DNA from: a bacterium
Lineage (GTDB): Bacteria > Zhuqueibacterota > Zhuqueibacteria > Oceanimicrobiales > Oceanimicrobiaceae
Assembly: GCA_037446635.1 (NCBI GenBank)
Contig: JBBIIG010000015.1
Location: 1-32,038, forward strand
Direction: 5' to 3'
Length of the DNA stretch: 32,038 bases
Below are positions 2-25,064 of the stretch, in pieces. The translations under genes and the position numbers were made by a program. The notes under the pieces are model-generated. The model did no database searches and was not told the DNA's origin. It saw only the letters and a list, made by a program, of their open reading frames with translations. The stretch's first letter is position 1. Each line of letters starts with the position of its first letter.

Positions 2-790
2 CAAAGCCGTTATGTTTACGACGTGCTTCGACGGGTCTGTGAAAGCCCCCGATGTAACCACGGCCCTTTGCGTGTGCCGCCCCCGATTGTCCATCTCGAT
101 GACGCGAACACTTACTGGCAGACGGCGTGGGAAGGCCAAAGTCTAAGTAAAACCGCCAAGCACTCGGATTGGGCGATTTTTTTTGAATCGGATTTTGCAG
201 CCCAAATTGCTGCTCTGTTAGCCGCACTTCATCAGATCGATCTCGAAAACATTGCATTGCAGGCGGGGCCGTCGCTGGAGCAGGTTATCGCAGCGGCGCG
301 CGAGGATAGGATGAACATAATTCAATTTCTTCCACAAAGAAGTGAAGAATTGCAGCGCGTTCAGCGGGCGCTGGAAAAATTAGCGGCGGGTTGGCACGCG
401 CCGATGCCGCGGCTCATCCACGGCGCCTTTAAGCTCACGCAACTTTTATATCGCGACGATCAGCTGGCGCTGGTGGACTTTGATGCCGTGGCGTGCGGCG
501 ACCCGCTTTATGATGTCAGCGAGTTCATCGCTTCGTTAGAATATTTAAACATCAGCGATGACGTTCCAATCGCCAAAATAAACAGCAAGGTCGAACAATT
601 TTTGACTCGGTATCAACAAGACGTGCCCTGGGAATGTGCGCGTGAGCGGATTGCTTTTTATGTGCTGGTGTTTCTCCTGGGTAAAATCCATTCGACGCTG
701 AAAAAGCTGGAAGCGCGGGCGAGTGAAAACCTGCCAGGCGCCCTAGATTTGCTTACCAAATGGCTGAAATTGGCCGAGGGCTACCAGTGA
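2..790 (+). CDS. APH/choline kinase-like phosphotransferase-fold protein (5'-partial; catalytic Asp absent)
   Basis: The frame is open from the window edge (caa agc cgt tat...). It has 'LAALHQ', a Brenner-like motif 'LIHGAFKLTQLL' (419-442) and 'LVDFD...GDPLYDVSEF'. The stop TGA overlaps the next GTG start (GTGA, 787-790). Confidence 0.8.
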   Translation, partial: QSRYVYDVLRRVCESPRCNHGPLRVPPPIVHLDDANTYWQTAWEGQSLSKTAKHSDWAIFFESDFAAQIAALLAALHQIDLENIALQAGPSLEQVIAAAREDRMNIIQFLPQRSEELQRVQRALEKLAAGWHAPMPRLIHGAFKLTQLLYRDDQLALVDFDAVACGDPLYDVSEFIASLEYLNISDDVPIAKINSKVEQFLTRYQQDVPWECARERIAFYVLVFLLGKIHSTLKKLEARASENLPGALDLLTKWLKLAEGYQ

Positions 791-1875
791 ACGTGGTGTT
801 TCTGCGCACGAAGCTGGACAGCGCGGTATTTTTGGGCGATCACCACGCCGGCGACGAGCTCGACCCCAGCCTGCTCGAGCGCATGAAGATCACCCAAAAA
901 GCCGGCAGCAGCTCCAAAAATATGATTGTTGGTTTAATCGAAAAACGGATTGTTTCCCGGTGTGAGGAATGGAAATTCTGGAGCGGCCGGCTGCAAGAAA
1001 TTTCCGGGCCCGGACATTTCCCGGTAAAACTGTTCCCGGTGGACGAGCGTTTCGCCCTCGAGGAGTTGGCGCACTATATCGACGCCGCCGGGCAGCCAGA
1101 CATCCTTTGGGTGGAAGGAACCGATTACCCTTTTTATCTCGAACGCATCTTCCAACTCTGCCCTGAAAGTTTTAAGTTGGTCTATTCGAAAGATTGGCGG
1201 CCGTGGAAAATCGCGCATCTGGAAGAGTACAACCTCTGTTTGGTGGACGAGCCCTGGGAAGTTGAAAAAGTCAAAAGTTATTTCCCGCGCCTCCATTGCG
1301 CCGTGTGGGATAAGCTGATCGATTACAAGTCGGCATTTTACCCAATGGCCAGCAACAAGATTTATGACATTTGTTATGTCGCTTACCTGCGGGAGCGCAA
1401 AAATCACGCGCTGCTATTTAGCGCAATGGCAAAAATAAACGATCGGCGGCTGAGCTGCGTTTGCATCGGGGACGATCGCAAAAATCATCGCGCCGAGTTG
1501 GAGAGGATGCTTGAAGATCTGCCGCATTCCGTGCACTTCACCGGTGAAATTCTGCTCGAGGAAGTCAATCGTTACATCAACTCGGCTAAGATCGGAGTGA
1601 TGTGTTCGCGGTTGGACGCGGCGCCGCGCGCCATTCTGGAGTACATGGCGGCGGACGTACCGGTGCTGGTGAATTCGGAACTGCTGGCCGGCGCCCGCTA
1701 TGTCGGCGCCCAGGCCGGTTTGGTGAAACCGCCGGCCGAATTTCATCTCGGCCTCCTCGAGCTTTTGGATAACTATCAAAATTATTCACCCCGCGCGTTT
1801 TTTCTCGAAAATTATTCGGTTGAAAAAGTCGTTCCGAAATTTATTGAAATATTAGAACAGGCAGGTTGCCGGTGA
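787..1875 (+). CDS. Glycosyltransferase, GT-B fold, GT4-like
   Basis: C-terminal Glycos_transf_1-like motifs: 'YVAYLRERKNH', 'VHFTG', 'DAAPRAILEYMAADVPV' (D/E-x7-E). Start placed at the GTGA overlap at 787, in frame with ORF 760. Confidence 0.8.
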   Translation: MNVVFLRTKLDSAVFLGDHHAGDELDPSLLERMKITQKAGSSSKNMIVGLIEKRIVSRCEEWKFWSGRLQEISGPGHFPVKLFPVDERFALEELAHYIDAAGQPDILWVEGTDYPFYLERIFQLCPESFKLVYSKDWRPWKIAHLEEYNLCLVDEPWEVEKVKSYFPRLHCAVWDKLIDYKSAFYPMASNKIYDICYVAYLRERKNHALLFSAMAKINDRRLSCVCIGDDRKNHRAELERMLEDLPHSVHFTGEILLEEVNRYINSAKIGVMCSRLDAAPRAILEYMAADVPVLVNSELLAGARYVGAQAGLVKPPAEFHLGLLELLDNYQNYSPRAFFLENYSVEKVVPKFIEILEQAGCR

Positions 1876-3116
1876 AAATCGCTTACCTCAGCGCGGATTT
1901 CGGCGTGCCGATTTTTGGCTACAAAGGAGCGTCCGTGCACGTGCGTGAAATGGTGACGGCGCTTAGCCAAGCCGGGCACGCGGTTACTATCCTTTCGCCC
2001 GCGATTGACAATCCCAGCCCGATCCCGAATGTGGAATTTTTTCCAATCCCCCTGGCCGCTGAAGATCTCCAGCGCCTGAACCAACTCAAAGAAGTGGAAG
2101 CCTTGTTGAATGTGCAAACCCGTATTCGGCAGGAATTGCGCAATCTCATCTACAATTTGAGATTGCATGCTAACGCTAGCGAGTATCTTCGCCGAAAGAA
2201 AGTGGATTTTGTTTACGAACGGTACGCGCTCTTCGGTTACGCCGGCATTCGCCTCGCCAAAGAGTTGGGGGCGCCGCACCTTTTGGAAGTGAACGCGCCG
2301 TTGGCCTACGAACAGGAAAGAACCCGCGGCCTGGAGATGAAAGAGCTGGCGCGCGAGACGGAACGCCGAATTTTTCGCGACAGCGACCACGTGTTTGTGG
2401 TTTCTCAGCACTTGCAGGAATTGGTGGCCTCTTGCGGCGTCCCGGAAAACCGCATTGATATTTTGCCAAATGGAGTTGACCCCCGGCGCTTCGCACCGCA
2501 ATCGGCAGATGGCAAACGAGTGCGCGCTCAGCTTGGCCTCGAGGGGAAACAGATCATCGGCTTTGTGGGAAGCTTGAAGCCCTGGCATGGCACCGAGACC
2601 CTACTGGCCGCGTTTCGTGACGTGCATCCAGCCGCCCTGCAAGCGCACTTGCTGATTGTTGGCGACGGTCCGGGACGAGAGCAGTTGGAAAAAACCGTGC
2701 ACGCAAATGGCTTGAACCAGGTCGTGACCTTCACCGGCAACGTCCCTTACGACGAGGTTCCCGATTACCTCGCCGCCGTGGATATCGCCGTCGCTCCCTA
2801 CACGCCCAATGAGCAGTTTTATTATTCGCCTATCAAAATTTTTGAATACATGGCGATGGCTAAACCGGTGGTGGCGGGCCGAATTGGGCAGGTGGAAGAA
2901 ATCCTACGCGACGGCGCAACCGGTTTGTTATTCGAGCCCGGCAACCTTCCGCAACTCACCGCGGCGTTGTTGAAATTGCTGCACGATGCCTCCCTGTGCC
3001 GGCGCATGGGCGAACAGGCGCGCGCCTGGGTGGTGCGGGAACGGGCCTGGGACAACAACGCCCTCAGGGTGATTGAGATCGCGAGTCAATTAACCAAGAA
3101 AAGAAAGGCAGAATGA
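1872..3116 (+). CDS. Glycosyltransferase family 4
   Basis: Begins 'MKIAYLSADFGVPIFGYKGASVHVRE'; also 'LPNGVD', 'GFVGSLKPWHG', 'YSPIKIFEYMAMAKPVV'. GTG start overlaps the upstream stop (GTGA, 1872-1875). Confidence 0.92.
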   Translation: MKIAYLSADFGVPIFGYKGASVHVREMVTALSQAGHAVTILSPAIDNPSPIPNVEFFPIPLAAEDLQRLNQLKEVEALLNVQTRIRQELRNLIYNLRLHANASEYLRRKKVDFVYERYALFGYAGIRLAKELGAPHLLEVNAPLAYEQERTRGLEMKELARETERRIFRDSDHVFVVSQHLQELVASCGVPENRIDILPNGVDPRRFAPQSADGKRVRAQLGLEGKQIIGFVGSLKPWHGTETLLAAFRDVHPAALQAHLLIVGDGPGREQLEKTVHANGLNQVVTFTGNVPYDEVPDYLAAVDIAVAPYTPNEQFYYSPIKIFEYMAMAKPVVAGRIGQVEEILRDGATGLLFEPGNLPQLTAALLKLLHDASLCRRMGEQARAWVVRERAWDNNALRVIEIASQLTKKRKAE

Positions 3117-4294
3117 AAATCAAAACATGCATCGTCACCGGACAGTACCCGCCGCAGGTGGGCGGCGTCGGGCACTCCGCCCATCGCGTCGCGAATTTGT
3201 TGGCGCAGGAGGGGTATGAGGTTCAGGTGGTTGCGCTGCAAAAGCACCCCGTATCGTTGCCGCTTGATGAAAGCATCTCGACCACTCAGGAAGAACGATT
3301 GCTGGTGCATCGCGTCAAAGTGTTTCACCCTAATCGCCGCGACGATCCAACCCTCTCTGAAGCCGAAATTTTGACGCGTTACAACCGCGAGATGTTTCAG
3401 GCGCTAGACCACTTTCAACGGCGTTACGGCTACGCGGTGCTGCACGCGTTCTTCCTCTATCCTGCCGGGTTTATCGCCGGCCTGGTTGGGAAGCTCCATT
3501 CAGTGAAGGTCATTGCTTCTGTTCGCGGCAACGATATCGGCAAATATGCGTTCGATCCCCTGCGGCTGCCGTTCATTCAGTCCGCGTTGGTCAACGCCGA
3601 TGTCGTTACCTCCGTGGCCACCAACTTGATTGAGCTGGCCGACCGCGCCATCACTCCGATTGCCAACAAATCCAAAACCATTTTGAATTCGATCGATGCG
3701 GCCCGGCTGCGCGTGCAATCGAAACCGGATTTGCCGCTGCACGGTCTGGTCATTGGTACCTTCGGTTTGTTTCGCTACAAAAAGGGTTTGGTCTATCTCA
3801 TTAAAGCGCTGGCCAGCTTGCGCGATCGCTTCGATTTCACTCTGCTCTTGGGCGGCGATTTTTTTAGCGACAGCGATCGCCAGCCGCATTTGCAGTATCT
3901 CAGCGATTACGGATTAAGCGATCGCAGCGTCATCACCGGCAAAATTCCGCCGGCGCGCGTCGCCGACTATTTGCAGCTCTTCGATATTCTGGTGTTTCCG
4001 TCGCTCTATTCCGAGGGCTGTCCGCTGTCTCTTTTGGAAGCGATGGCGTTGAAAAAAGTCGTGGTCGCCACCCGCACCGGCGCGATTCCGGAGATGGTGC
4101 GCGATCGCGAAAACGGGCTTTTGGTCAACCCGGGTTCGTCGGCAGAAATCGCGGCGGCCATCATTGAATTGCTCGGTAATCCCGAGTTGCGCGCTGTTCT
4201 TTCGGCAAACGCCGGCCAACTCGCCAGCGAGTTGACGCCGGAACGAGAGCTTGGTGAGTGGCTAAACGTATATGAAACGGTTTGTGGACGTTGA
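3113..4294 (+). CDS. Glycosyltransferase family 4
   Basis: 'YPPQVGGVG', 'RGND', 'RYKKG', 'SEGCPLSLLEAMA' (E-x7-E). ATGA overlap with the upstream gene. Confidence 0.92.
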   Translation: MKIKTCIVTGQYPPQVGGVGHSAHRVANLLAQEGYEVQVVALQKHPVSLPLDESISTTQEERLLVHRVKVFHPNRRDDPTLSEAEILTRYNREMFQALDHFQRRYGYAVLHAFFLYPAGFIAGLVGKLHSVKVIASVRGNDIGKYAFDPLRLPFIQSALVNADVVTSVATNLIELADRAITPIANKSKTILNSIDAARLRVQSKPDLPLHGLVIGTFGLFRYKKGLVYLIKALASLRDRFDFTLLLGGDFFSDSDRQPHLQYLSDYGLSDRSVITGKIPPARVADYLQLFDILVFPSLYSEGCPLSLLEAMALKKVVVATRTGAIPEMVRDRENGLLVNPGSSAEIAAAIIELLGNPELRAVLSANAGQLASELTPERELGEWLNVYETVCGR

Positions 4295-5706
4295 ACCACG
4301 AATTTCATGAAATGGCAGGCATCATAAAAAACTTTCGAATTAATTCTTTACCTTCAACGGCCTGGCTTAAAGATCAATTGCCGTCTTATATTTGGCCAGA
4401 ACCGCAGCGGCCGGGAAAAATCCTTCGCATTGCGGTGCTCTATTCAAGAGTTACCGCCAAGCTGAGCGCCGCGTCCTTCGAGATTGAATTGCAAAATCCG
4501 GATGGGCCCGTGCTTCGGCAGACCTACGCGGGCTACCTTTGGCCCAGTGAGCGGCTTTGGGAGGAATATCATGGTCTGCTTAACAACCACCCCATCCCGC
4601 CGACCATCGGGCCGCCGCTGCTGTTAATTGAGGAAGCGAATTTAATTCTGGCGGCTTTTCCTAACGATCGTAAATTGCGGGTGCTCTCCAAAGACGAAGT
4701 AGATTTGTGGCTAACGGAGCATTTGCACGAGCTTTTGAATGGGGAGCGGGATGGCGCGCGCTGGCGTCTCAAGGAAACGACGATGGAGGTGCTGCGCTAC
4801 GTGCCGGACCGCCGCTTGACCGCGCGCGTCCGCGTCAGGCTGGGATTGGAAGACGGCTCAGAAAAAACCGTTGCGTTTATCGCCAAGCAGTTTTATAAAC
4901 CCAAACGGGCGAAAGATTATTGTCGAAATCTCCACAAGCTTCAAGCCGTCAGGGCAGAGTTTTATTCGCCGGACGGCGCTCTGCGCCTGCCCCGAAAATT
5001 GGCGCTGGTTGAAAAGCGGGCGGCGGCTTTTATTGAAGAACTTCCGGGAAGAAATTTAGAGCAAGCGCTGCCCGAGCTGGATGTGCAAAACGTGATGCGG
5101 TTGGTTGGCAAAATGCTGGTGGATTTTCATCGCATTCCAATGCGAGTGCGAAAGAAAGTGACGCCAAAAAATGAAATCAATGAAGTCCGCGAAGCCAGTC
5201 GAACGATAGCCCAGGCCATCCCGGAGCTGCGCCCCCGACTGCGAGCCCTCATGGAAGGCCTGCTGGCTTGGCCCTGGCAAGGCACAGCGTCCGTCGCTTT
5301 GTTGCACGGATCATTTCGGCTCAATCATATTTTACTTCACCAAGGCAAATTGGCTTTTTTAGATCTTGATAGTTTGCGAACTGGCCCCGCGGCCTACGAT
5401 CTTGCAAATTTCCTCACGTCTTTGTATTATCTGCAAGCGCAAGATCGGATTAGCCTGCCGCAGCGAGAAGATATCGCACGTTATTTTCTCGAAGGATACG
5501 CTGCAAACTCAAGCCGGCAGATTTCGACGCCCGCGGTGCTGTGGTTTTTTGTCACCCTGTTGATCAACAAGCAAGCGCTCAAGCATGTGACCCATTTGCA
5601 CGAGAACCAGGAAGAAAAAGTTAAAAATATGTTGCGCCTCGCCGAAGAAATGTTATGTAAGCCGCGGCAAACTTCTCTCACGGATTTGTGGAAAGCGCTG
5701 CCATGA
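4291..5706 (+). CDS. APH/choline kinase-like phosphotransferase-fold protein with N-terminal extension (catalytic Asp absent)
   Basis: 'FPNDRKL', 'LRYVPDRR', 'FIAKQF' (beta-3 Lys), 'EELPG', 'LLHGSFRLNHIL' (5305-5328), 'FLDLD...GPAAYDLANF'. Start is either TTG 4291 (TTGA overlap) or ATG 4312. Confidence 0.8.
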   Translation: MNHEFHEMAGIIKNFRINSLPSTAWLKDQLPSYIWPEPQRPGKILRIAVLYSRVTAKLSAASFEIELQNPDGPVLRQTYAGYLWPSERLWEEYHGLLNNHPIPPTIGPPLLLIEEANLILAAFPNDRKLRVLSKDEVDLWLTEHLHELLNGERDGARWRLKETTMEVLRYVPDRRLTARVRVRLGLEDGSEKTVAFIAKQFYKPKRAKDYCRNLHKLQAVRAEFYSPDGALRLPRKLALVEKRAAAFIEELPGRNLEQALPELDVQNVMRLVGKMLVDFHRIPMRVRKKVTPKNEINEVREASRTIAQAIPELRPRLRALMEGLLAWPWQGTASVALLHGSFRLNHILLHQGKLAFLDLDSLRTGPAAYDLANFLTSLYYLQAQDRISLPQREDIARYFLEGYAANSSRQISTPAVLWFFVTLLINKQALKHVTHLHENQEEKVKNMLRLAEEMLCKPRQTSLTDLWKALP

Positions 5707-7865
5707 AGTATCACAAAGAAATTCGCATGGCCGCCATCTTTCTGGGGTTAATCATGATACCCAGCGGCGTTTTGGGATACTTGAGTTGGCGCGCGTTGGA
5801 AACGGAGCGCAAGCTTGCGCACGAGCGCCTGCGCGAAAGCTACCACCAGTTTGCCGGCCTAGCATCGCGAGAGATCGACGAAGGCCTCGAAGAGATCGAA
5901 GAAAACTGGCTTTCCTTTATTAATGAAATCGTCCAGGAGCGCTCGCCGCAAGTCAACCTGGAAAATTTGGAAAAGTTGTGCAGCCGTTCGCCACTCATCG
6001 CGGCCTGTTTTTTTATGGCGGCGCCGGGAAAAGTCGGTTATCCTCCCAATCTGACCGTACGAGAGCAAGATGAGTATTCCGAGCGCAGCGGCAGCGAAAA
6101 TTATGTTCGCGAGTACGAAATTTTTAATGAACTGGCGAATCAGGGCGAGGAGTTAGAATATCGCGCCTACGCTTTAGATGGCGCCATCGCCGCGTACCGC
6201 CAAATTTTCGCACAGGTCGAGCGCACCCAGTTTCATGCGATCGCAGAAAGTTATATCGGCCGCGCGTTGATGAAAAAAGGAGATTGGGAACAGGCTTTAT
6301 CAACCTTTCAAAATCTGCTGGCCACCTACCCCGAAGTTCGCGATCTCAACAAAATGTACCTGCGGTTTCTGGCGCAGTACCAAATTGCCGTGTGCCTGGA
6401 TAATCTCGATCGCGACTCCGAGGCGATCGCCGTACTTCTCCGCTTAAATAAAGATTTGCTGGAGCGCAGCGACACCATTAATAGCCTGCAATACTCATTT
6501 TTTTTCGACCAAATTCAAATCCTTGCGGAGCGTTTGCTTTCAGCGCCGAACTTGCCGGACTCGGATAGTTATAATAAACAGTTTCGCGCCTTAGCCGACC
6601 AAAACAAAAAACGCTTAAGCCAAAAATATTTTTTGGAACTGTTGGATCGCCAGTTGAACAAAATGGTGATCAACCGTAAGCGTTACCGTCCGAAGGTTTA
6701 TTACGTTTCGGATGAAGCCGATGAGAAGCCCTTTCTTTTGGGGTTTCGCCCCATTCCCGATCCTCAGGGTGCTTACACGGTTGGTTTGTTGGGGGTGCAG
6801 ATTGATCTCGAACAGCTCAGCCAACAGCTCTTTCCGAAGATTTTGCGCAATTTAAAATTCAGCGATCAAGTGCTGCTGGCCATTTTGAATCAGCGCAACG
6901 ATTTTGTGTTCGGCACCGCCGCGCCGGCTGGCGCGCCGATTGCCAAACAAACGCTTTCGGAGCCATTCAACTTTTGGCAGGTTGCAGTTTACTTAACCGG
7001 CCCGTCGCCTTTTTCGCGACGGTGGGATTTTCAAACCATGCTGGGCGCCTGGTTTATCGCGCTGCTGCTGCTGAGTATTTTGGTCGGCGCGTTGTTGTTT
7101 ATTCGCCGCGCTCGACGCGAGGCCTATTTGTCGCAGCTCAAGTCGTCGTTTGTTTCCAATGTGTCGCATGAATTGCGCACGCCGCTGGCTTCCATAAATA
7201 TGCTGGCGGAGTTATTGGAGATGCAGCTCGCGGGAGAATCGAAGGCGCCGAAAAAAGAATTCACGGCGCACGCGCGCGAATATCTCCAAGTTATCCGCCG
7301 CGAAGGGGAACGGCTGACCCGTCTCATTGAGAACGTACTGGATTTCTCGAAAGTCGAGCGCGGCATCAAACACTACAACTTTGAATATGAAGACCCGGCC
7401 GCCGTGGTACATCGTGCCGTGGAATCCTTTCGTCCCCATGCCAAAGCCCAGGGCTTCAGCCTGACCGTAGACATCAACGGCTCCCTACCGGAGGTGCAGA
7501 TGGACGGCGACGCCATTTCGCAGGCGGTGTTAAATTTGTTGAACAACGCCGTCAAGTACAGCGATCGCGTGAAAGAAATTCGCGTGCGGACGTATCAACA
7601 GAATGCGTCGCTTGCCATTGAAGTCAGCGATCGCGGGATTGGCATCGCGGAAACGGAAATCCCCAAAATTTTCGGGGAATTTTACCGCGTGGACCAGCGC
7701 TTGAACTCGCAGAAACAGGGCGGTATGGGATTGGGGCTCACCCTGGTGCGGCACATTGTTTCTGCCCACGGCGGCGAAATCAAAGTTCGTAGCCAGGTAG
7801 GGCAAGGCTCAACGTTCACGATTTTGCTGCCGCGGACGGTCGAAAGTACGATTGTTGAAAAGTAA
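5703..7865 (+). CDS. Membrane sensor histidine kinase (HisKA + HATPase_c) with an extracytoplasmic TPR-containing region
   Basis: Two TM segments; H-box 'VSHELRTPL', N-box 'NLLNNAVKY', 'DRGIGI', 'FGEFYRV', 'GMGLGL', 'GQGSTF'. TPR-like helices 'AESYIGRALMKKGDWEQALSTFQNLLATYP'. ATG 5703 overlaps the upstream stop (ATGA). Confidence 0.93.
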   Translation: MKYHKEIRMAAIFLGLIMIPSGVLGYLSWRALETERKLAHERLRESYHQFAGLASREIDEGLEEIEENWLSFINEIVQERSPQVNLENLEKLCSRSPLIAACFFMAAPGKVGYPPNLTVREQDEYSERSGSENYVREYEIFNELANQGEELEYRAYALDGAIAAYRQIFAQVERTQFHAIAESYIGRALMKKGDWEQALSTFQNLLATYPEVRDLNKMYLRFLAQYQIAVCLDNLDRDSEAIAVLLRLNKDLLERSDTINSLQYSFFFDQIQILAERLLSAPNLPDSDSYNKQFRALADQNKKRLSQKYFLELLDRQLNKMVINRKRYRPKVYYVSDEADEKPFLLGFRPIPDPQGAYTVGLLGVQIDLEQLSQQLFPKILRNLKFSDQVLLAILNQRNDFVFGTAAPAGAPIAKQTLSEPFNFWQVAVYLTGPSPFSRRWDFQTMLGAWFIALLLLSILVGALLFIRRARREAYLSQLKSSFVSNVSHELRTPLASINMLAELLEMQLAGESKAPKKEFTAHAREYLQVIRREGERLTRLIENVLDFSKVERGIKHYNFEYEDPAAVVHRAVESFRPHAKAQGFSLTVDINGSLPEVQMDGDAISQAVLNLLNNAVKYSDRVKEIRVRTYQQNASLAIEVSDRGIGIAETEIPKIFGEFYRVDQRLNSQKQGGMGLGLTLVRHIVSAHGGEIKVRSQVGQGSTFTILLPRTVESTIVEK

Positions 7866-7883: not shown

Positions 7884-8582
7884 ATGAAAAAAATCCTTAT
7901 TATCGAAGATGACGCCGCGATGGTGCTCGGCCTGGAAAGCGCGCTGCAGGCCGAGGGCTACCAGACCGCGGTGGCGCGCACCGGCCCCGACGGCTTGCGC
8001 CTGGCCAAAGAGTTCCAACCAGATCTGCTGATTTTAGACGTGATGCTGCCCGGCTTGAGCGGGTTCGAAATTTGTCAGCGCCTGCGCGACGACGGCATGA
8101 AGTCGCCCATCCTGATGCTAACCGCCAAAACCGAAGAGAACGATCGCGTCATCGGCTTGGTTTTGGGGGCGGACGATTACATCACCAAACCGTTCAGTTT
8201 GCGGGAATTGCTGGCGCGGGTGCACGCGCATCTCCGCCGCCAGGAAAAGTCCGAGGCAAAAGAAGCTGAGCTCCAACCCAAAAGCTACTTTTTTGGTAAT
8301 GTCGAGGTAAATTTTAAACGGCGCGAGGTTTATAAAGACGGCCAGGTGCAACCTCTCACCAACCGCGAATTCCGCCTTTTGCAGTACTTTCTTGAGCATC
8401 CCGGCGAGCTGTTGACCCGCGACCGGCTGTTGAATGAAATTTGGGGGTACGAAGTTTATCCCACCACGCGCACCGTGGACAATCACATCCTGCGGCTGCG
8501 CAAACACATCGAACCCGATCCGGAAAATCCGCGCTATATCAAAACCGTGTTTGGCGCGGGATATCTGTTCGAGACGGAATAG
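7884..8582 (+). CDS. Response regulator, OmpR/PhoB family
   Basis: 'ILIIEDD', 'LILDVMLPG', 'GADDYITKPF'; winged-helix C-terminus 'LTNREFRLL...RTVDNHILRLRKHIE..P..IKTVFGAGY'. Confidence 0.96.
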   Translation: MKKILIIEDDAAMVLGLESALQAEGYQTAVARTGPDGLRLAKEFQPDLLILDVMLPGLSGFEICQRLRDDGMKSPILMLTAKTEENDRVIGLVLGADDYITKPFSLRELLARVHAHLRRQEKSEAKEAELQPKSYFFGNVEVNFKRREVYKDGQVQPLTNREFRLLQYFLEHPGELLTRDRLLNEIWGYEVYPTTRTVDNHILRLRKHIEPDPENPRYIKTVFGAGYLFETE

Positions 8583-8595: not shown

Positions 8596-9666
8596 ATGAA
8601 ACCTTTTACAAACAAGCTCGGCGTGCAGATGCACGGCGTTAACTTAACTCTGGAAGCGGATAACCCGCGCTTGCTGGCCTACGCCGCCGAACATCTCAAA
8701 CGAGTGGTTACGACGCCGGCCGCCGCGCCCGAGCTAACCGTGCGCAGTTTTTGGACCGAGGGCGAGTGGAACCCACATGCCCACCCCTTTGCCACCAATA
8801 GCGCGCTGAATGTAATTGGCAAGCGTATGTTGGGTAACGCCGAGGAACTGATTTGGCTGGACACCCTGCGAATGGATGGGCTGCAACTGCGGTTTGTGGC
8901 CAACCACGCGCCGCGCTGGACCTTCGAGGTCGCCTACTGTTTTCGCCCCGAAAAACGCAAAATCGAAAAGTCGCCGGACTATGAATACAAAAAATTTTTC
9001 AGCTTGATGAGTTACCTGGTTTACTGTCCTATCACCTGGTATCTGGAATATTATCGCGATTGGACGGTTTTGCACGCCTCGGCTTTGGCGAGCAAAAGCG
9101 CGGGGGTGATCATTGGTGGTCTGGGAGGCGTGGGTAAAACCACCACCTGTGTGGCCTTGATGCAACAAGCCGATTTGGAGTTGATTTCCGAAAATCTCAT
9201 TTTTACCGATGGCGAATTCATTTACCCCTGTGAAGAGCCCATTCGCCTGGACGATGCGAGCCTGGCGAGGCTGGGCGGCCATTTGCCGCACCTGTCGCCA
9301 ATGAATTTTCCAGATGGACTTAAAAAGAAATGGCTGTTTCATTTAAACCGCGAAACCACGCCGCAAAAGGTTAAGCCCGCCCTGCTTTTTTTACCGCAAT
9401 TTACGCCCCAGCGCGAGCTCAGAGAAATCACGGCCGCGGCGGCATTAGAAAAAATGACCGCCATCAATCGCCTGACCCGGGAGTTGGACGACTACTATTG
9501 GTACGCTGCAGCGCTGGAGATGCACTGGCCCAAAGCGGGGCAGGCTCAAAAACGAGCGGCGGTTTTGCATAGACTTCTGCAAGCCACGTCCTGTTTCGAG
9601 TTAGGAATTGATCGCCAGGCGGGAGTGGAGGCGGTGGTGCAGGATATTCTTTCAAAAATAAAGTGA
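8596..9666 (+). CDS. HPr kinase/PEPCK-like P-loop NTPase (HprK-related, uncharacterised)
   Basis: 'VLHASAL' followed by Walker A 'GLGGVGKTT' and then 'LISENLIF', where HPrK has DD. Likely start is ATG 8596, 13 nt after the regulator stop; the upstream part of ORF 8434 overlaps the regulator and is probably not real. Confidence 0.72.
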   Translation: MKPFTNKLGVQMHGVNLTLEADNPRLLAYAAEHLKRVVTTPAAAPELTVRSFWTEGEWNPHAHPFATNSALNVIGKRMLGNAEELIWLDTLRMDGLQLRFVANHAPRWTFEVAYCFRPEKRKIEKSPDYEYKKFFSLMSYLVYCPITWYLEYYRDWTVLHASALASKSAGVIIGGLGGVGKTTTCVALMQQADLELISENLIFTDGEFIYPCEEPIRLDDASLARLGGHLPHLSPMNFPDGLKKKWLFHLNRETTPQKVKPALLFLPQFTPQRELREITAAAALEKMTAINRLTRELDDYYWYAAALEMHWPKAGQAQKRAAVLHRLLQATSCFELGIDRQAGVEAVVQDILSKIK

Positions 9667-11042
9667 AGCTCAACATGCTTGCTCCCCTCGTACGGTCAAA
9701 TCACGGTTTGCCGATCAAATATTTTTTAACTCCGGAACTGATGCCCGACCGCGAAACGATCGCCCAGTTGGAAGGTCTCGCGCAGGCCAGCGGCCTCCAA
9801 CATCACGTTGCGGTGTTGCCGGATATCCACCGCAAAAGCCGCAACCCGAGCCCCACCGGCACGGCGGTGGCAGCGAGAGACGCCATCATCCCCCGCGCCG
9901 TGGATACAGGCATCTGTTGCGGCATGCGCATAATCCGCACGGAGATCGAAACGCGTCATCTTTCGGCGGCGGTTCTCGACGCGCTTTTCGGCGAACTCAT
10001 GCGCACCATTCCGGTGGCTGAGCACCACGAGGATGTTCTGAGCGAAGAAGACTTCACTGAGATACTGGTGCACGGCGGGCGCTGGAGCCAGAAAAAATTT
10101 GCCCTGAGCGACGAGGAGTTGAATTGCATCGAGGAGCGCGCTACCTACCGGGCGGATACTAATGACAGCACGGCCATTCTGGCGGCGATGCCTGCGCCCG
10201 CCCTAAAAAAGGGCCGGCGTCGCTTCGGCACCCTCGGCGCAGGCAACCATTTTCTCGAGCTGCAGGAAATTGTGGAAGTGTTTGATCCGAAGATGGCGGA
10301 TCGGCTTGGCCTCGCGCGGGGGCAGGCCGTGTTTATGCTTCACACGGGCTCCCGCAGCGTTGGCAGCAAGATGATGAAGTTTTATTTAGAGGAATTGGGC
10401 CAGAAATTTGGCGGCCCGCCAATTTGGTCGGTGCCAGCCAATTCGGACGAGGGCTTGCGATACCAACGCGCCATCGCCGCCGTCTCTAATTATGGTTTTG
10501 CCAACCGCATCGTCATCACCGAAAAATTGCGCGCGGCGGTGCGCAAAGTGTTGGTGGATGAATCGCTGGCGCTGCCCCTGCTGTACGATTGTGCGCATGT
10601 CAGCATCAAACAAGAGCTCTGGCGCGGTGAAAAGCTGTGGGTTCATCGCCACGGCGGCAGCCGGGCGCTGCCGCCTTCGCAGATGGCAGACCACCCGCTC
10701 TTTTCTCAAACCGGCCAACCGGTACCCATTCCGGGGTCGATGGGGGACGATTCGTTTATCGGCGTGGCCGACGAGCCCGTGGTTGAAACGTTTTACTCCC
10801 TCAATCACGGCGCCGGCCGAATTTTCGACAAGCCCGAAGCGCGGCAACATTTTTCCGCAGCTCAAATCGAAAAAACCATGCGCACTAAAAATATCCGGCT
10901 TTATCGCTACGGTTCGGACAACATTGCGGAACAAGCGCCGGGCTCGTTTAAAAATATCGCCAAAATCATCGACGCCATGACCGCCCTTTCCCTGGCCAAA
11001 CCGGTGGTGCGCACACGGCCGTTAGCCGTTTTGAAGGGTTAA
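9663..11042 (+). CDS. rtcB: RtcB-family (GTP/Mn-dependent RNA ligase fold) protein, divergent
   Basis: 'LPDIH', 'ICCGMR', 'GTLGAGNHFLE', 'HTGSR', 'IPGSMG', catalytic 'HGAGR', C-terminal 'RPLAVLKG'. GTGA overlap with the upstream gene. Confidence 0.93.
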   Translation: MKLNMLAPLVRSNHGLPIKYFLTPELMPDRETIAQLEGLAQASGLQHHVAVLPDIHRKSRNPSPTGTAVAARDAIIPRAVDTGICCGMRIIRTEIETRHLSAAVLDALFGELMRTIPVAEHHEDVLSEEDFTEILVHGGRWSQKKFALSDEELNCIEERATYRADTNDSTAILAAMPAPALKKGRRRFGTLGAGNHFLELQEIVEVFDPKMADRLGLARGQAVFMLHTGSRSVGSKMMKFYLEELGQKFGGPPIWSVPANSDEGLRYQRAIAAVSNYGFANRIVITEKLRAAVRKVLVDESLALPLLYDCAHVSIKQELWRGEKLWVHRHGGSRALPPSQMADHPLFSQTGQPVPIPGSMGDDSFIGVADEPVVETFYSLNHGAGRIFDKPEARQHFSAAQIEKTMRTKNIRLYRYGSDNIAEQAPGSFKNIAKIIDAMTALSLAKPVVRTRPLAVLKG

Positions 11043-11161: not shown

Positions 11162-11767
11162 ATGCAAAGTACTAGAGTGATTGTTTTGGTTCTACTCACC
11201 GGCCTGGTGTTCGCTGCGGTTAGTCCGAGCCGGGCGCAGAGTAGAAAACCCTTTATGAGAGCAGATGAGATTCTCGCCACCATCAAACCGGGCCAGTGGG
11301 CAAAGTTAGAGGGAGTGGTACAGAAGGATTTCACCGCCCTCTGCAAGGAGGTGGAAATTCTGACCGGTGACTTTCTCGATGATGAGTGGGGGATTACCGC
11401 AGTTGTCCAGCAGATTGATAAAGAAAAAAAAGAGTTTACACTTCTGCGCTTGCCAGTCAAAATCAATAAGGATGCTGAATTTGAAATGGCCGGAAAAAGC
11501 GATGGCAAGCGCGAGTTTAAAGGATTTGACGATCTCAAAGTTGGAATGTTGGTGGAATTAGAGGGAACCTACTTGAAAGACGGGACTTTTCTGGCCAAAG
11601 AAATCGACGATGAAACCGCTAAAGTGGAACGCGAGCCGGCACTGGCGGGAGAGGTCGAAGTAATGGGGCGAGTCGACAAAGTTGACGCCAAGCAGCGAAC
11701 GATTACAGTCATGGGTATCGCCTTTGTGCTTACTGAAAAAACCAAAGGCAAATCGGTCATCAAATAA
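11162..11767 (+). CDS. Secreted DUF5666 (OB-fold-like repeat) domain protein
   Basis: Signal peptide ending 'SRA'. Repeated 'V..IDKEKKEFTLL..PVKINKDAEF...DLKVGMLVELEG...FLAKEI' and 'GRVDKVDAKQRTITVMGIAFVLTEKT', typical of DUF5666. Confidence 0.75.
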   Translation: MQSTRVIVLVLLTGLVFAAVSPSRAQSRKPFMRADEILATIKPGQWAKLEGVVQKDFTALCKEVEILTGDFLDDEWGITAVVQQIDKEKKEFTLLRLPVKINKDAEFEMAGKSDGKREFKGFDDLKVGMLVELEGTYLKDGTFLAKEIDDETAKVEREPALAGEVEVMGRVDKVDAKQRTITVMGIAFVLTEKTKGKSVIK

Positions 11768-11781: not shown

Positions 11782-13311
11782 ATGAATCGCAACCGTTGCT
11801 TCATTTTTTTAGTTTCGACGCTGTTGCTCAGCGGGCGGCTTATTGCTGGCGCGGGCTCCCAAGAAAGTCGGGAAGTGGATTTTTTTTACAAAGCGTACAG
11901 CGAGGCCGAGATCAACGAGGCCATAAAACGTCCCCTGACGCTGAAGGACTGTATTTCCATTGCACTGGCGAAGAACATTCCACTCAAGTTGGTGCAAGGC
12001 GATGTAAACAAGGCCGAGGCCGCGCATTCCGGCGCCTACAGCATTTTTTTCCCGGTATTTACTATTGAAGGCGTCAAAGAGAACCGTGATGAAAAGCGGC
12101 TGCCGGTTTTCCCAAATCCGGATACCACCAGCATTAGCCCCATTCGAAATCAAGCGTTGGTTGGCCGGGTGATCCAATTGTTTCCAACGGGTGCGGTTTT
12201 AGATTTTGCCACGGACCTGCGCCGCGACGTCAACGCCCCGGATCGGTTTCAATCGCCCGACCGAACCAAAAACCGCATCTTTAACCTGCGCTTTACCCAG
12301 CCGCTCTTGCGAGGCGCCTGGCCCACCGTGGTGCGCAACGCCATCACCGTATCTGCCTATGACCGTCAAATACAAAATACGTTGCTGTTAGATCAAAAAC
12401 TGAAGACAGTGTTTTTGGTAAAAAGTGCATTTTATGAAGTGCTGCTGCAGCACGAATTGCTTAAGGTCAATCAGGCGGCTATCGAGCGCGACTCGACGCT
12501 GCTGTTCGCTTCGGAATCGAAAGTGGAGGCAAAGTTAGCCACGCGCCGCGATGTGCTCAGCGCGGAAATTCAACTGGCCAGCGACAAAGCCACGCTGATC
12601 AAAAACCAAACCGACTACGAGTTCGCGCTGGACGGCCTCAAGGAAATTTTAGGATTACCTATCGAACTTGAGATCGATATTGCTGATACCGAGCTGGATT
12701 TTTCAATCCAGACGCTTGACGAGCAGGCTTTGATTGAACGAGCGGCCATGATGAATCCGACTCTCCAAAGCACCGCCCTCGCCGTTAAGCGAAGTAAATT
12801 ACAACAAACGGTCGCCCGCAATGCGCGCCTGCCGCAGCTTGATTTAGTCGCTTCTTACAGTCGTAATTTTGAATCTAAATTGGCATCCGACCCGGAGGAA
12901 AATACCGATCTTCATGCTACTGCCTGGGAGTTCAGTTTTAATTTTAGCTACCCGTTTTTGAATCGTGACGCGGTTACCAAAGCCGAAATTGCCCAGGTTG
13001 ATGTTTCGCAGCAACAGGAACGGTTGCAGGAGTTGCGCCGGCAAATTCAGGTGAGCATCCGCAGCATTGTGCGCAGCACCTACAGCGCTATTGAAGAGAT
13101 CAAGACCTTGCAGCGCAGCATTGAGTCGGCAGAACAGAAGGTGGCGTTTGCCACCACCATGTTCAATCTCGGGCGGGCGTCGAACCTGGATATCACCGAC
13201 GCCCAGGAAGCTTTGTTGAAAGCGGAAACGCAGTACGTGCAAAAATTGGTCGATTATCATATTCAACTGGCGTTGTTGGAGAGTCTAACCGGACAAGTTA
13301 TTACGAATTAA
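11782..13311 (+). CDS. TolC-family outer membrane efflux protein
   Basis: Signal peptide, 'LTLKDCISIALAKN', 'FTQPLLRG', 'RLPQLDL', 'FNLGRASNLDITDAQ', 'LESLTG'. Confidence 0.93.
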   Translation: MNRNRCFIFLVSTLLLSGRLIAGAGSQESREVDFFYKAYSEAEINEAIKRPLTLKDCISIALAKNIPLKLVQGDVNKAEAAHSGAYSIFFPVFTIEGVKENRDEKRLPVFPNPDTTSISPIRNQALVGRVIQLFPTGAVLDFATDLRRDVNAPDRFQSPDRTKNRIFNLRFTQPLLRGAWPTVVRNAITVSAYDRQIQNTLLLDQKLKTVFLVKSAFYEVLLQHELLKVNQAAIERDSTLLFASESKVEAKLATRRDVLSAEIQLASDKATLIKNQTDYEFALDGLKEILGLPIELEIDIADTELDFSIQTLDEQALIERAAMMNPTLQSTALAVKRSKLQQTVARNARLPQLDLVASYSRNFESKLASDPEENTDLHATAWEFSFNFSYPFLNRDAVTKAEIAQVDVSQQQERLQELRRQIQVSIRSIVRSTYSAIEEIKTLQRSIESAEQKVAFATTMFNLGRASNLDITDAQEALLKAETQYVQKLVDYHIQLALLESLTGQVITN

Positions 13312-13327
13312 AAGAGAGCTCGGTTTT

Positions 13328-14563
13328 ATGGATACTTTAGCTAAATTCAAAGTCTGGTTCGCTGAAGTCATGGCGGATAAAAGGCGCCGGCAGGTGATGA
13401 TGATTGTAGCGCCTGCGGTCGTCGTGGGTTTTTTTGTTGGTGGCAAACTCATGTTCGCCGAAAGCGACGAGATGAAACTGCCCAGCGTAGAGGTTAAGAA
13501 GGGGGCTGTAACCATCAAAATCACCGAGATCGGAGAATTGCGAGCCAAGGATCAGGTGACCATCAGCGCTATCAATGATAAGCAAATCATCTGGATGGTT
13601 CCGGAGGGCCAGTGGGTAGACGAAGGCGACACCATTTTGGTGCTCGAGTCCGAGAAATACATCATTTCGAGCGGCGAGGCCGAGTCGTCGTTGCTGGTGG
13701 CCAAAGCAGAATTGACCAAAGCGCTGAGCGAACTCGAGGCGCAGAGGTCAAAGGAAGAGGCGGCCCGCAAGAATTATGAGTCGCTGCCAGAGTTAGCCAA
13801 AAAAGGCTTTGTGATGGAAAGCGAAGTGGAGCAAGCGCGGCTGGCGTACATGGAGGTGAAATCCAGAACCAACTCCTTTCAGGCGGCGGTCGATGCCGCG
13901 CGTGCAAACGTGCAGCGCGCGGAACGAGCGCTCGCTCAACAAGAACGAAAGCTGCGCGAGGGCGTCATAGTCGCACCCCGCGCCGGCTTGGTGGTTTACG
14001 CCACGGTTGGCAATGAGGAAACGGCACGAAAGATTGAAGTCGGCATAACGCCGTTCGAGGGTATGGATTTGATATATTTGCCGGACATCTCCTCGATGCT
14101 GGTGGACGCGGAGATCAGCGAAGTCGATTTAGCCCGGCTGAAGGTCGGGATGCCAGTAGAAATTTGGCTGGACGCTTACCCGAACGACAAATTTAAAGGC
14201 GAGGTCATCAAAATTTCCGATCTGGCCAAACGCAAAATTAGCCGGGTTACCGGCAAGGCGACCGGCGCCAAAGTTTTTGACGTGACTGTCAGGGTGTTGG
14301 CTGAGGACATTCGCTTGAAGCCGGGGCTCACGGCCACCGTCGATATCATTGTTAACCATTATGAATCGGTGCTGTACGTTCCTCTCGAAGCGATATTTGT
14401 GGACGAGCACGATCAGACAATCGTATATGTCAAAAACAAAGGGCGGGTTGAAAGCAGAAAGGTAATGTTGGGGGAAAGCAACGATCGCGTGGCTATCGTC
14501 AAAGAAGGCTTACGGGAGAATGAAGAAGTACTGTTGACTCACCCAAGCTTGGCTCGCAGTTAA
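13328..14563 (+). CDS. Periplasmic adaptor / membrane fusion protein (MacA/HlyD-like)
   Basis: N-terminal TM, 'VPEGQWVDEGD' lipoyl half, coiled-coil hairpin, 'IVAPRAGLV', 'DAEISEVDL', 'LKPGLTA', 'EGLRENEEV'. Confidence 0.93.
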   Translation: MDTLAKFKVWFAEVMADKRRRQVMMIVAPAVVVGFFVGGKLMFAESDEMKLPSVEVKKGAVTIKITEIGELRAKDQVTISAINDKQIIWMVPEGQWVDEGDTILVLESEKYIISSGEAESSLLVAKAELTKALSELEAQRSKEEAARKNYESLPELAKKGFVMESEVEQARLAYMEVKSRTNSFQAAVDAARANVQRAERALAQQERKLREGVIVAPRAGLVVYATVGNEETARKIEVGITPFEGMDLIYLPDISSMLVDAEISEVDLARLKVGMPVEIWLDAYPNDKFKGEVIKISDLAKRKISRVTGKATGAKVFDVTVRVLAEDIRLKPGLTATVDIIVNHYESVLYVPLEAIFVDEHDQTIVYVKNKGRVESRKVMLGESNDRVAIVKEGLRENEEVLLTHPSLARS

Positions 14564-14584
14564 TTCCCTAACCGCAAAACATTA

Positions 14585-15820
14585 ATGGAATATTCTGAAA
14601 CCTTTCGCGTCGGCATCGAAAGTATTTTAGCCCATAAATTACGTTCATTGTTGACCACGCTGGGCGTTATTTTCGGAGTGGCGGCGGTTATTTCCATGCT
14701 CTCCATTGGCGAAGGCGCCAAACGTACTGCGATTGAGCAGATCAAGTTGTTGGGTACGAACAACATTCGTATCAATCACGTCAAGCTAACCGGTGAGCAA
14801 GCGGAGTTGGCCGAAAAGAAACTTTCCAAAGGTTTGAATTACCGTGATTGCCAACTCATCCGCGCGAACTCGCCCAACATCACCGGCGCCACCCCCTTGA
14901 GGTTTGTGGAAACGGAGGTGTTGCGGGGGAATAAAGAATCCACCGGCCGGGTGATCGGGACGCAAAGCGACTTCGAGTGGATCAGCAATTTTCATCCTAA
15001 GGAGGGGCGCTTTATTGGGCCGCTGGATGAAAAAGAGGCCAAGCGGGTGTGCGTCATTGGTTCAGAGGTTCGCCAGGAATTGTTTGGTTATCTTAACCCG
15101 ATTGGCCGCCAGGTCCGAATTGGCGACTCGTGGTTTACGGTGATCGGCGTCATGGAACCCAAAACCATCAAAGAAGGAAAAACCACGGTCATCAAGCTGC
15201 GCAATATCAACAAAGACATTTATATTCCCATCACCACCGCTCTCAAGCGCTTCACCAACGACGACCAACCTGATTTTGTTGATGAAATTGCTATCCAGGT
15301 GAGCCATGCGGACCAGGTCATCACGACCGCGGAGGTGGTAAAACGAATTCTGGCGCGCACCCACAACGGCGTCAACGATTACGAGATCATCATTCCAGCC
15401 GAACTGTTGGCACAGAGCCAGAAAACGCAGCGGATTTTTAACATCGTCATGGGGTCGATTGCCGCGATCTCGCTTTTGGTTGGTGGCATCGGCATTATGA
15501 ATATTATGTTGGCGAGCGTTACCGAGCGCACGCGCGAGATCGGGATTCGGCGCTCCGTGGGCGCTACCCAGCATGACATTCTCCGGCAATTTCTCAACGA
15601 GACCGTTTTAATCAGCGCCAGCGGAGGGCTGGTCGGCATCATTCTGGGAACAATCATGGCGAAAAGCATCAACGTTTTTGCTGGATGGGATACCGTGATC
15701 TCCCCGTTCAGCGTCATTGTCGCCTTCGGCATCTCGGCACTGGTGGGAATCGTGTTTGGAATGTATCCCGCACGCCAGGCGGCTATGTTGGATCCCATTG
15801 CCGCGCTGCGCTACGAATAG
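14585..15820 (+). CDS. MacB/FtsX-family ABC transporter permease (no fused ATPase domain)
   Basis: 'KLRSLLTTLGVIFGVAAVI', 'SLLVGGIGIMNIMLASVTERTREIGIRRSVGA', 'YPARQAAMLDPIAALRYE'. Confidence 0.95.
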   Translation: MEYSETFRVGIESILAHKLRSLLTTLGVIFGVAAVISMLSIGEGAKRTAIEQIKLLGTNNIRINHVKLTGEQAELAEKKLSKGLNYRDCQLIRANSPNITGATPLRFVETEVLRGNKESTGRVIGTQSDFEWISNFHPKEGRFIGPLDEKEAKRVCVIGSEVRQELFGYLNPIGRQVRIGDSWFTVIGVMEPKTIKEGKTTVIKLRNINKDIYIPITTALKRFTNDDQPDFVDEIAIQVSHADQVITTAEVVKRILARTHNGVNDYEIIIPAELLAQSQKTQRIFNIVMGSIAAISLLVGGIGIMNIMLASVTERTREIGIRRSVGATQHDILRQFLNETVLISASGGLVGIILGTIMAKSINVFAGWDTVISPFSVIVAFGISALVGIVFGMYPARQAAMLDPIAALRYE

Positions 15821-15859: not shown

Positions 15860-16975
15860 ATGCGTTTCAAAATTTATGTCATCGCGATTTTGTTGATGAA
15901 CTCGGCGTGCTTCAATCGTGCCAAAATCCACGTCCCGGAAAATACGGCTGCCCGCGGAAACACGCTCAGCTCCTGGGTTGATCACACCGGCCAGGCGCCG
16001 GCGCCAACCGCCGGTGAAGACATCGCCATGATTTACGATCCACAGCAGCACCGCATCCTACTCTTCGGCGGCAAGGACGACGACAATCAAAATAGCAATG
16101 AACTGTGGGCGCTGGATGCGGCCAGCCATGCCTGGCAGCCACTCATGATTGTAGGCGACGCGCCGCCCGCCAGCGAAGACCACTCCTTGATTTATGACCC
16201 GATTGGCCATCGCATGATTCTCTACGGCGGAGAGAACGGCCCCACCTGGAACCACACTTGGAGTTTTGATTTGCAAACTCTGCGCTGGAGCGATTTAACC
16301 GACTCCATGGCGCCGCGCCGAGAAGATCACACCGCCATTTACGACAGCCAACAAAAACGGATGGTGGTGTTCGGCGGGCAAGATAATGACGAGCTGAGTA
16401 ACGAAATTTGGGCGTTCAATCTTGATCCCGCTTCTCAAGGTTTTCAGCAATGGCAAAAACTGCCGGCCGCCGGCGACCGTCTGCCGGTCGCAAGATATGA
16501 TCATGCCGCCGTCTATGACAGCTTAAAAAATCGCATGGTAATCTACGGCGGCTGGGATGACGCTGAAGAAACATACCTCGACGACACCTGGGCTTTTTAT
16601 TTTGAACCCTTCCGATGGCAGCCCATCAAAACCAAAAAGTCACATCCGCCGCGGCGCCGTCACGCCGTGGGGGTGTATGACGCTGCCAGAAATTGGTTTA
16701 TCATCCAGGGCGGTTTTGGTGAGGAAGGGTATCTCAATGATGTCTGGGCGTTCGATCTAACCGTGGACGCCTGGCTGAACATCACGCCGGGCCCTCAGCC
16801 GAGGATGGATCACGCCGCGATTTATGATCCCCGCACACAACGCCTGATCATCTATGGCGGCGACGCGGGCCTGACTCATAAATTTCACGACCTGTGGGAA
16901 TTACAGATATTGCCGCACTTGCCGCTGGAGCCCATGTTGAAAGAGGCCGGCGCCCGGCCGCGCTCACGAGAGTAA
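15860..16975 (+). CDS. Kelch-repeat beta-propeller lipoprotein
   Basis: Lipobox-like 'MNSAC'; six repeats of the type 'PxxRxDHxAIYDxxxxRMVxxGG...NxxWxFD'. Confidence 0.88.
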   Translation: MRFKIYVIAILLMNSACFNRAKIHVPENTAARGNTLSSWVDHTGQAPAPTAGEDIAMIYDPQQHRILLFGGKDDDNQNSNELWALDAASHAWQPLMIVGDAPPASEDHSLIYDPIGHRMILYGGENGPTWNHTWSFDLQTLRWSDLTDSMAPRREDHTAIYDSQQKRMVVFGGQDNDELSNEIWAFNLDPASQGFQQWQKLPAAGDRLPVARYDHAAVYDSLKNRMVIYGGWDDAEETYLDDTWAFYFEPFRWQPIKTKKSHPPRRRHAVGVYDAARNWFIIQGGFGEEGYLNDVWAFDLTVDAWLNITPGPQPRMDHAAIYDPRTQRLIIYGGDAGLTHKFHDLWELQILPHLPLEPMLKEAGARPRSRE

Positions 16976-17945: not shown

Positions 17946-17983
17946 CGCGACCATTTTCCAAAAGAGTTAAAAGCATTGACTCG

Positions 17984-19246: not shown

Positions 19247-19267
19247 TAAGCCGCGGCTGACGAAACC

Positions 19268-19978: not shown

Positions 19979-20019
19979 ATCCAACAGGTTTAATTCATAA
20001 ACACAAAAAGGAGCGCACC

Positions 20020-20949: not shown

Positions 20950-20958
20950 TACAAACAC

Positions 20959-20985: not shown

Positions 20986-21009
20986 TTCAAACTTAATTGG
21001 ACATCAAAA

Positions 21010-21537: not shown

Positions 21538-21564
21538 CGAAGTTAAACCAAAAGTGAGTTAAGT

Positions 21565-25052: not shown

Positions 25053-25064
25053 TGACTGTGGTAA

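Follow-up and report, generated by a model that had tools for sequence, protein, structure and literature searches.

The 32,038-nucleotide stretch of bacterial DNA analysed here (the window; contig JBBIIG010000015.1 of assembly GCA_037446635.1) carries on its forward strand a gene, 9663..11042, for a protein of the RtcB fold and, directly upstream, a gene for a P-loop protein of the HprK/PEPCK fold (8596..9666, also forward), which runs four bases into the RtcB-like gene, its TGA stop overlapping the GTG of the latter. The RtcB-like protein belongs to a kinase-linked branch of its family. We consider it somewhat probable that the two proteins act as a pair, in which a sugar or polyol phosphate would be activated with GMP through His382 of the RtcB-like protein and then joined to a hydroxyl of a glycan.

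The frame 9663-11042 is open and full length, encoding 459 residues from the GTG at 9663 or 455 from the ATG at 9675, where the database record P0002 starts. Its product matches the Pfam family RtcB (PF01139) over model positions 1-426 with 310 bits (cut-off 27), and its AlphaFold model (pLDDT 94) was matched by Foldseek to RtcB structures with an E value of 1.5e-40 and a TM score of 0.88 (4DWQ). The scores against the NCBIfam RtcB models, which describe particular subfamilies, lie below their cut-offs (165/407, 129/272, 218/1150 and 77/1050 bits). Judged by its sequence, the protein is a member of the RtcB homology family that lies outside the canonical ligases in its second manganese site (Mn2), its gamma-phosphate site and its gene context.

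Residues were assigned by counting along the alignment of the product to the RtcB of Pyrococcus horikoshii (Pho), with which it shares about 30% identity. Relative to Pho RtcB, G69 is changed to K58, G93 to D81, D95 to G83, N97 to C85, R190 to K183, H242 to S235, N330 to V313, K351 to H330, S411 to D389, R412 to K390, E446 to Q424 and Y451 to F429. Retained are Pho D65, H67, C98, N202, H203, F204, E206, H234, R238, H329, S385, H404, R408 and K480, and the retained residues in the numbering of the window protein include D54, C86, N195, H196, F197, E199, H227, R231, H312, S364, H382, R386 and K458. An earlier note on this DNA had described remodelled metal- and substrate-binding motifs around an intact guanylylation histidine; this was confirmed by the alignment to Pho RtcB and by the family alignment described below. 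The motifs that it quoted were all found (VDTGICCG at 9900-9923, AHV, HRHGGS, EQAPGSFK, LPDIH, NHFLE, HTGSR, PGSMG, HGAGR and VLKG). Absent from it was the change of G69 to K58 (PDxHxK), which is the single new residue common to the whole wider clade.

The substitutions are fixed in close relatives. Of 885 matches in a homolog search, the best 120 are the record of the window itself plus 119 further proteins of 59-72% identity. Those that are named come mostly from candidate division KSB1, the phylum to which the window probably also belongs. The query was aligned with these 119 homologs (120 rows). D81, G83, D389, K390, Q424 and F429 are found in 120/120 rows and K58 in 119/120; position 313 is valine or glutamate, and position 330 histidine or asparagine, in every row. 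The Mn2 ligand D95 is thus glycine in 120/120 rows, with the other Mn2 ligands H196 and C86 retained. Both members of the catalytic pair persist (H382 in 120/120, D54 in 119/120), as do the ligand positions of the first manganese site, Mn1 (C86, H227 and H312, each 120/120). The guanine pocket keeps F197, E199 and K458 in all 120 rows and has glutamine at the E446 position in all of them. Among the contacts to the 5'-OH strand, N195 is conserved in 120/120 rows and R231 in 118/120, R190 is replaced by lysine and H242 by serine, and Q194 is variable. The extra cysteine that the earlier note had listed as a feature is C85, at the N97 position, which is cysteine in 65 rows, asparagine in 47, serine in 7 and glycine in 1; because of this variability it was ruled out as a new ligand.

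At D95, N330, K351, R412, E446 and Y451, 98-100% of 53 canonical RtcBs carry the canonical residue, and D95, N330 and K351 are also near-invariant in five further RtcBs, one of them of the E. coli type. The possibility that the substitutions are common in bona fide RtcBs is therefore contradicted by the alignments, as they are essentially absent from the 53 canonical proteins. Across the wider clade, His404, D65, C98 and the three metal histidines are invariant. The D81 position is serine or valine in sister branches, aspartate being missing there from the Chloroflexi, Omnitrophota and actinobacterial branches. PGSMG is lost and the guanine pocket partly eroded in the Chloroflexi and actinobacterial branches, and R408 and K480 are absent as well from the two actinobacterial members. 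All of these elements persist in the window's branch.

Ratios of non-synonymous to synonymous substitution (dN/dS) lay between 0.08 and 0.21 in the 29 pairs reported out of 55. The pairs that include the window, which are near saturation, gave 0.11-0.19, and the six with the least saturation gave 0.08-0.12. No internal stop was found in the 29 variant matches listed from a phylum survey. Relaxed selection, which the earlier note had considered, is thus not what the data show: 9663..11042 is an intact gene under purifying selection, and its substitutions are due neither to chance nor to decay. At one related locus (L015:8299-9706) a frameshift breaks the RtcB-like gene and the partner gene is missing within 19.7 kb, which reflects either loss or an assembly error.

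Published structures and mutants locate what the substitutions hit. Mn1 is held by C98, H234 and H329, and Mn2 by D95, C98 and H203; Mn2 touches the gamma-phosphate, to which N330 bonds (PMC9745838). In human RTCB the phosphate at the gamma position is held by D119, N354 and K375 (PMC10944509), which are Pho D95, N330 and K351 with an offset of 24 residues, checked on histidine and cysteine residues. This triad is exactly the set of residues replaced by G83, V313 (Val or Glu) and His or Asn 330 in all 120 rows. Human D119A shows weak guanylylation and no ligation (PMC10944509), and D95A is inactive, archease rescuing its RNA guanylylation and not its ligation (PMC3973293). The guanine is contacted by F204, E206 and K480, and the RNA 3'-phosphate has to occupy the former position of pyrophosphate, next to Mn2 (PMC3973293), so that the altered site is also the acceptor site. 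The 5'-OH strand is contacted by N202, R238, R190, Q194 and H242 (PMC8051266). E470, the equivalent of E446, sits at the guanine base (PMC8668186); as this residue is glutamine here, the guanine pocket is not wholly unchanged. Since the gamma-phosphate triad is replaced and the histidine, Mn1 and most guanine contacts are kept, the remodelling is centred on the leaving-group and acceptor site, and the proposal of an altered second-metal and leaving-group site beside a retained guanylylation histidine and Mn1 site is upheld at the sequence level. The loss of precisely the gamma-phosphate contacts makes it uncertain that the window protein uses plain GTP.

The strongest clue in our analysis is the P-loop partner, a gene that the earlier note had left out. 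The 356-residue protein has H160, a Walker A motif (GGLGGVGKT) and E199-N200. Foldseek matched it to PEPCK (E 6e-9) and to HprK (1KKL, E 7e-5); profile matches to HprK-related families are weak, such as 29 bits against a cut-off of 200 for TIGR04352 (HprK-related kinase A), and a search of PDB sequences with the partner profile gave matches at the level of the Walker A motif only. The ESM Atlas gave unnamed clusters with the partner as query, and with the product of 9663..11042 it gave RtcB clusters. H160, G180 and K181 are invariant in the partner family, which has Glu-Asn or Asp-Asn where HprK has Asp-Asp. Among 150 representatives, 103 have DN, 22 EN, 1 DD and 24 could not be parsed, so that DN or EN is found in 125 of the 126 parsed sequences, compared with mostly Asp-Asp in generic HprK-like controls. 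Asp179 is the proton acceptor of HprK (PMC9399212). The missing aspartate opens two readings of the partner, which may take an anion, for instance GMP, as its acceptor or may be part of a regulatory module of pseudo-enzymes. Another HprK-like protein is encoded at G000:C54:2958-4160; it carries a DE motif, and its contig has no RtcB.

Linkage of the two genes was analysed in the best 80 of 564 loci, comprising 22 of the core branch, 1 of Omnitrophota, 4 of Chloroflexi and 53 canonical ones. The partner is present at 19/22 core loci and 4/4 Chloroflexi loci and at 0/53 canonical loci (0/43 of the canonical loci of at least 10 kb), APH-fold genes at 17/22 core against 0/53 canonical loci, and genes for family 4 glycosyltransferases (GT4) at 16/22 against 0/53; because the neighbour profiles for partner, APH and GT4 were built from variant loci, the positive counts lack independence. 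The three core loci without the partner are L010, whose contig begins within the gene, L011 and L015. The GT4 encoded two genes upstream at L024 carries a weak, fused partner domain.

Surveys of whole genomes gave a similar picture. In the phylum survey of 167 genomes, the variant (E below 1e-170) was detected in 21, and the partner in 21/21 of those; G163 has a fragment of the partner at a contig end. The module is distributed patchily: one family has it in 18/19 genomes, another in 4/10 and the family of the window in 0/20, with the reservation that related genomes are not independent. In two class samples of 301 genomes each, strong partner matches were found in 7 and 3 genomes; the variant is adjacent or fused at 11/11 strong partner loci (two of which are seed loci) and lies within 1.5 kb at 0/49 weak generic HprK-like loci. 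In metagenomes the variant occurs at 4/5 strong partner loci, the fifth ending at the partner gene, and at 0/6 weak loci. A 401-genome sample of Actinomycetota yielded four partner matches, two with an adjacent variant and two without, the latter carrying Asp-Asp. A variant of the L024 type was found in 2/301 genomes of an Omnitrophota sample, each time with a weak P-loop match nearby. A plasmid search returned 214 records, all below 60% identity, with no close variant among the 25 listed at 26-33%. One locus (L124, G147:C2:957000-976999) has the GT4, APH, response regulator and P-loop genes and lacks the sensor kinase and RtcB-like gene beside them, making it a natural deletion variant. A single contig (G729:C38) holds the cluster twice (L190 and L191), partner and RtcB being fused in one copy and separate in the other, and several KSB1-type genomes likewise carry two copies.

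The partner is also fused to its neighbours. Partner-RtcB fusions were found in P0272, P0283 and P0302, and the first of these (828 residues) belongs to a cluster of three, whose two full-length proteins come from contigs of 14.9 and 73.7 kb. Partner-GT4 fusions occur in P0280, P0287 and L024, and the partner is joined to a family 2 glycosyltransferase (GT2) in P0359 and to an ABC exporter in P0285. A search for longer RtcB forms detected 29 intein-containing canonical proteins only, which is weak evidence; fusions came to light later through the partner. At L013 and L031, what looked like N-terminal fusions were discarded, being GC-rich open frames that overlap the partner gene. The variants all group in a single clade with FastTree support of 0.999-1.0, and rooting on the bacterial type places this clade as sister to archaeal-type RtcB, with long branches as a caveat. 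Trees of the partner and of RtcB from 31 loci agree (Mantel r 0.94; supported splits shared 12/16 and 14/17). This agreement shows co-inheritance, not binding.

No archease, RtcA or RtcR is encoded among the 27 window open reading frames scanned, as the earlier note had stated, and an RNA-repair context (archease, rtcA, rtcR, prfH) was likewise found neither in the window nor among the neighbours scanned. The genome has a separate canonical RtcB on contig C6, with archease directly upstream, and rtcA on C84. The suggestion of a non-RNA acceptor, made earlier, is favoured by the gene context and the fusions.

In the proposed reaction, GMP from a guanine nucleotide would first be loaded onto His382, and the partner would either compensate for the lost second-metal and gamma-phosphate site or supply the phosphorylated substrate. 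GMP would then be passed to the phosphate group on X, a sugar or polyol, to give X-pp-G. A hydroxyl of a glycan or glycolipid built by the GT4 enzymes, positioned at the retained N195/R231 site, would attack the phosphate of X, forming an X-P-O-glycan bridge with release of GMP, and the product would be exported through the neighbouring ABC or TolC/MacAB system. A precedent comes from pseudomycoidin, in which an HprK kinase and a nucleotidyltransferase place a hexose on a phosphate (PMC6993621). A more specific version, which we regard as unlikely, is a new class of two-subunit glycan phosphodiester ligase spread over several phyla, in which the RtcB-like subunit, its gamma-phosphate site gone, would run on GDP or a GDP-sugar, and the partner, devoid of the base for hydroxyl acceptors, would phosphorylate a phosphate, for example on released GMP to give GDP.

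Several observations weigh against glycan joining by this pair. The 5'-OH RNA contacts N202 and R238 are retained, R190 is merely changed to lysine, and loss of D95 could simply cripple the enzyme. Asparagine at the Asp179 position may not allow hydroxyl phosphorylation by the partner. The Asp of the APH motif HGD is catalytic, and the neighbouring APH-fold proteins whose motif could be parsed mostly lack it, carrying HG[S/T/A]F or a similar sequence. With the partner lacking Asp179 and most APH neighbours lacking their aspartate, it becomes less likely that the sugar phosphate is simply the product of a kinase. The linkage is not absolute either: L011 and L015 have no partner in the available sequence, and G147 (91% complete) has a partner without a variant. 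In 3/21 genomes (G146, 95% complete; G164, 87%; G165, 59%) the variant is the sole RtcB match. Single fusion records may be artefacts of overlapping genes or read-through, and co-inheritance in an operon alone would yield matching trees.

We weighed glycan joining against other explanations. The pair may serve only the synthesis or exchange of GDP-linked donors, a phospho-sugar reacting with His-GMP, possibly formed from GDP instead of GTP, to give GDP-X for the GT4 enzymes without any joining. Donor chemistry of an analogous kind is carried out by the histidine nucleotidyltransferases of the GalT/VTC2 type. Such a role, which we hold to be rather unlikely, agrees with the loss of the gamma-phosphate triad beside a retained guanine pocket, with GT4 genes that are close by at 16/22 loci and also fused to the partner, and with the mutant data, in which D95 loss kills ligation and not all guanylyl transfer. 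It leaves unexplained the conservation of N195 (120/120) and R231 (118/120), which serve the 5'-OH joining step (PMC8051266), and the erosion in the Chloroflexi and actinobacterial branches of a guanine pocket that a pure GDP-sugar synthase should keep. If the variant is instead a nucleic-acid ligase or capping enzyme, the partner would replace archease or heal RNA ends, and the glycan context would reflect hitch-hiking or co-regulation under stress. The complete RtcB fold (TM 0.88 to 4DWQ), the retention of N202, R238 and most guanine contacts, and the genomes in which the variant is the sole RtcB match (the 3/21 above and G169) are in line with this, and compensation by the partner is conceivable in that archease restores part of the D95A activity. 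However, archease fails to rescue D95A ligation (PMC3973293), and D95, N330 and K351 are near-invariant in the 53 canonical and five further RtcBs. Moreover, the scanned neighbours include no RNA-repair family, glycosyltransferases are found fused to the partner, and archease-rtcB and rtcA exist elsewhere in the same genome. We thus judge a nucleic-acid role to be quite improbable.

Still less probable, in our view, is a nucleotide-binding regulatory or scaffold module made of pseudo-enzymes, which would tune the adjacent two-component system or the glycosyltransferases. In its favour, one catalytic aspartate is missing from each of the two paired proteins and from most of the APH-fold neighbours, and a sensor kinase adjoins 13/28 clustered variant loci; unlike in typical pseudo-enzyme decay, however, His404, D65, C98 and the three metal histidines are invariant clade-wide, and the Vicinamibacterales-type and Chloroflexi loci have no two-component genes. 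Finally, a decaying duplicate on its way to a pseudogene is scarcely credible: the frameshift at L015 and the canonical copy in the genome could be read in that sense, but the reading is refuted by the selection and conservation data, namely the dN/dS of 0.08-0.21, the substitutions fixed in 120/120 rows and the lack of internal stops among the 29 listed matches.

The surroundings of the pair were annotated over the window, in which the genes named here are all on the forward strand. Upstream lie an APH-fold protein truncated by the contig start, with HGAF replacing HGD (2..790), a GT-B glycosyltransferase (PF00534/PF13692; 760..1875), two GT4 glycosyltransferases (1866..3116 and 3113..4294), an APH-fold protein with HGSF replacing HGD (4282..5706), a sensor histidine kinase with a periplasmic part of tetratricopeptide repeats (5688..7865) and an OmpR-type response regulator (7884..8582). 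The GT4 enzymes, the second APH-fold protein and the response regulator are conserved neighbours, and the sensor kinase is one in KSB1-type loci. Downstream, a DUF5666 protein (11162..11767) and an exporter of TolC-like, MacA-like and MacB-type permease genes (11782..15820) are frequent neighbours, followed by a Kelch beta-propeller protein (15860..16975) whose gene in relatives often stands between the P-loop and RtcB-like genes. The window's branch is thus found among GT4, APH, two-component and exporter genes, and the Chloroflexi and actinobacterial branches in Wzx/GT2/epimerase or glycosyltransferase loci.

The MacA-like and permease genes abut at 14563-14585 with no ABC ATPase between them; an ATPase of about 245-290 residues is encoded there in L003, L005-L008 and L022. 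A second APH type (HGDF) adjoins ABC genes at other loci, and more APH-fold genes related to those of the window occur on G000:C74 and C91 with ABC transporters and acyl-transfer-like genes. Inositol-1-phosphate synthase is encoded at L023 (homolog at L031), phytase at L017 and purple acid phosphatases at L011, L014 and L018; these phosphatase and inositol-type neighbours hint at inositol or polyol phosphate and are too few to rely on. A separate surface-polysaccharide locus extends over 17373-32038 and G000:C15:32039-52000 (L125), with a NusG paralog, split YjbH-like genes, Wzz/Wzc, Wzm/Wzt, UDP-galactopyranose mutase, GT2/GT4, Wzy-like and Asn-synthase-like genes. After 25 kb of the window the GC content drops to 47.6%, compared with 52.5% for the genome. 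A scan gave 19 promoter-like sites against 11.4 expected and 30 terminator-like sites against 26.2, counts on which no conclusion was based. Among the sequencing runs looked up, none of RNA was listed.

No publication on the pair of RtcB variant and partner was found in a literature search with limited coverage of subscription papers. The characterised RtcBs that we encountered all act on nucleic-acid ends, so a sugar-directed branch spanning several phyla would, if real, be the first use of this fold outside nucleic acids. It would also provide a new route to phosphate-bridged glycans, and the label 'tRNA-splicing ligase RtcB' would then be wrong for many genes. The most testable member is the window's branch, because it keeps the guanine pocket that is partly lost in the Chloroflexi and actinobacterial branches, and the variant offers a natural experiment on the purpose of the second metal site of RtcB.

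Compared with RtcBs of the archaeal/metazoan type (P. horikoshii PH1602, Thermus thermophilus TTHA1785 and human RTCB), the window protein shares the fold, the catalytic His and Asp, the Mn1 ligands, F204/E206/K480 and N202/R238. It differs in lacking D95, N330, K351, R412, E446, Y451 and H242, in gaining K58 and D81, in being paired with a P-loop protein and not with archease, and in its place among glycosyltransferase, APH and exporter genes. Paralogs such as Myxococcus xanthus RtcB3, which reportedly performs capping (a study cited in PMC10630183), indicate that guanylyl transfer can be separated from ligation; they still act on nucleic-acid ends, and the comparison concerns their altered output. 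With PsmK/PsmN of pseudomycoidin and TIGR04352 (HprK-related kinase A), the pair has in common an HprK-fold protein accompanied by a nucleotidyl-transferring enzyme, the psm pair putting a sugar on a phosphate. Here, in contrast, the transferase has the RtcB fold, E/D-N takes the place of D-D in the P-loop protein, and the scanned neighbours include neither a lasso precursor nor a PqqD gene. The kinase/guanylyltransferase pairs CobU, HddA/HddC and CofC/CofD make GDP-linked intermediates. They share with our proposal the logic of phosphorylation, guanylylation, transfer and GMP release; their folds are unrelated, which makes this a functional analogy only.

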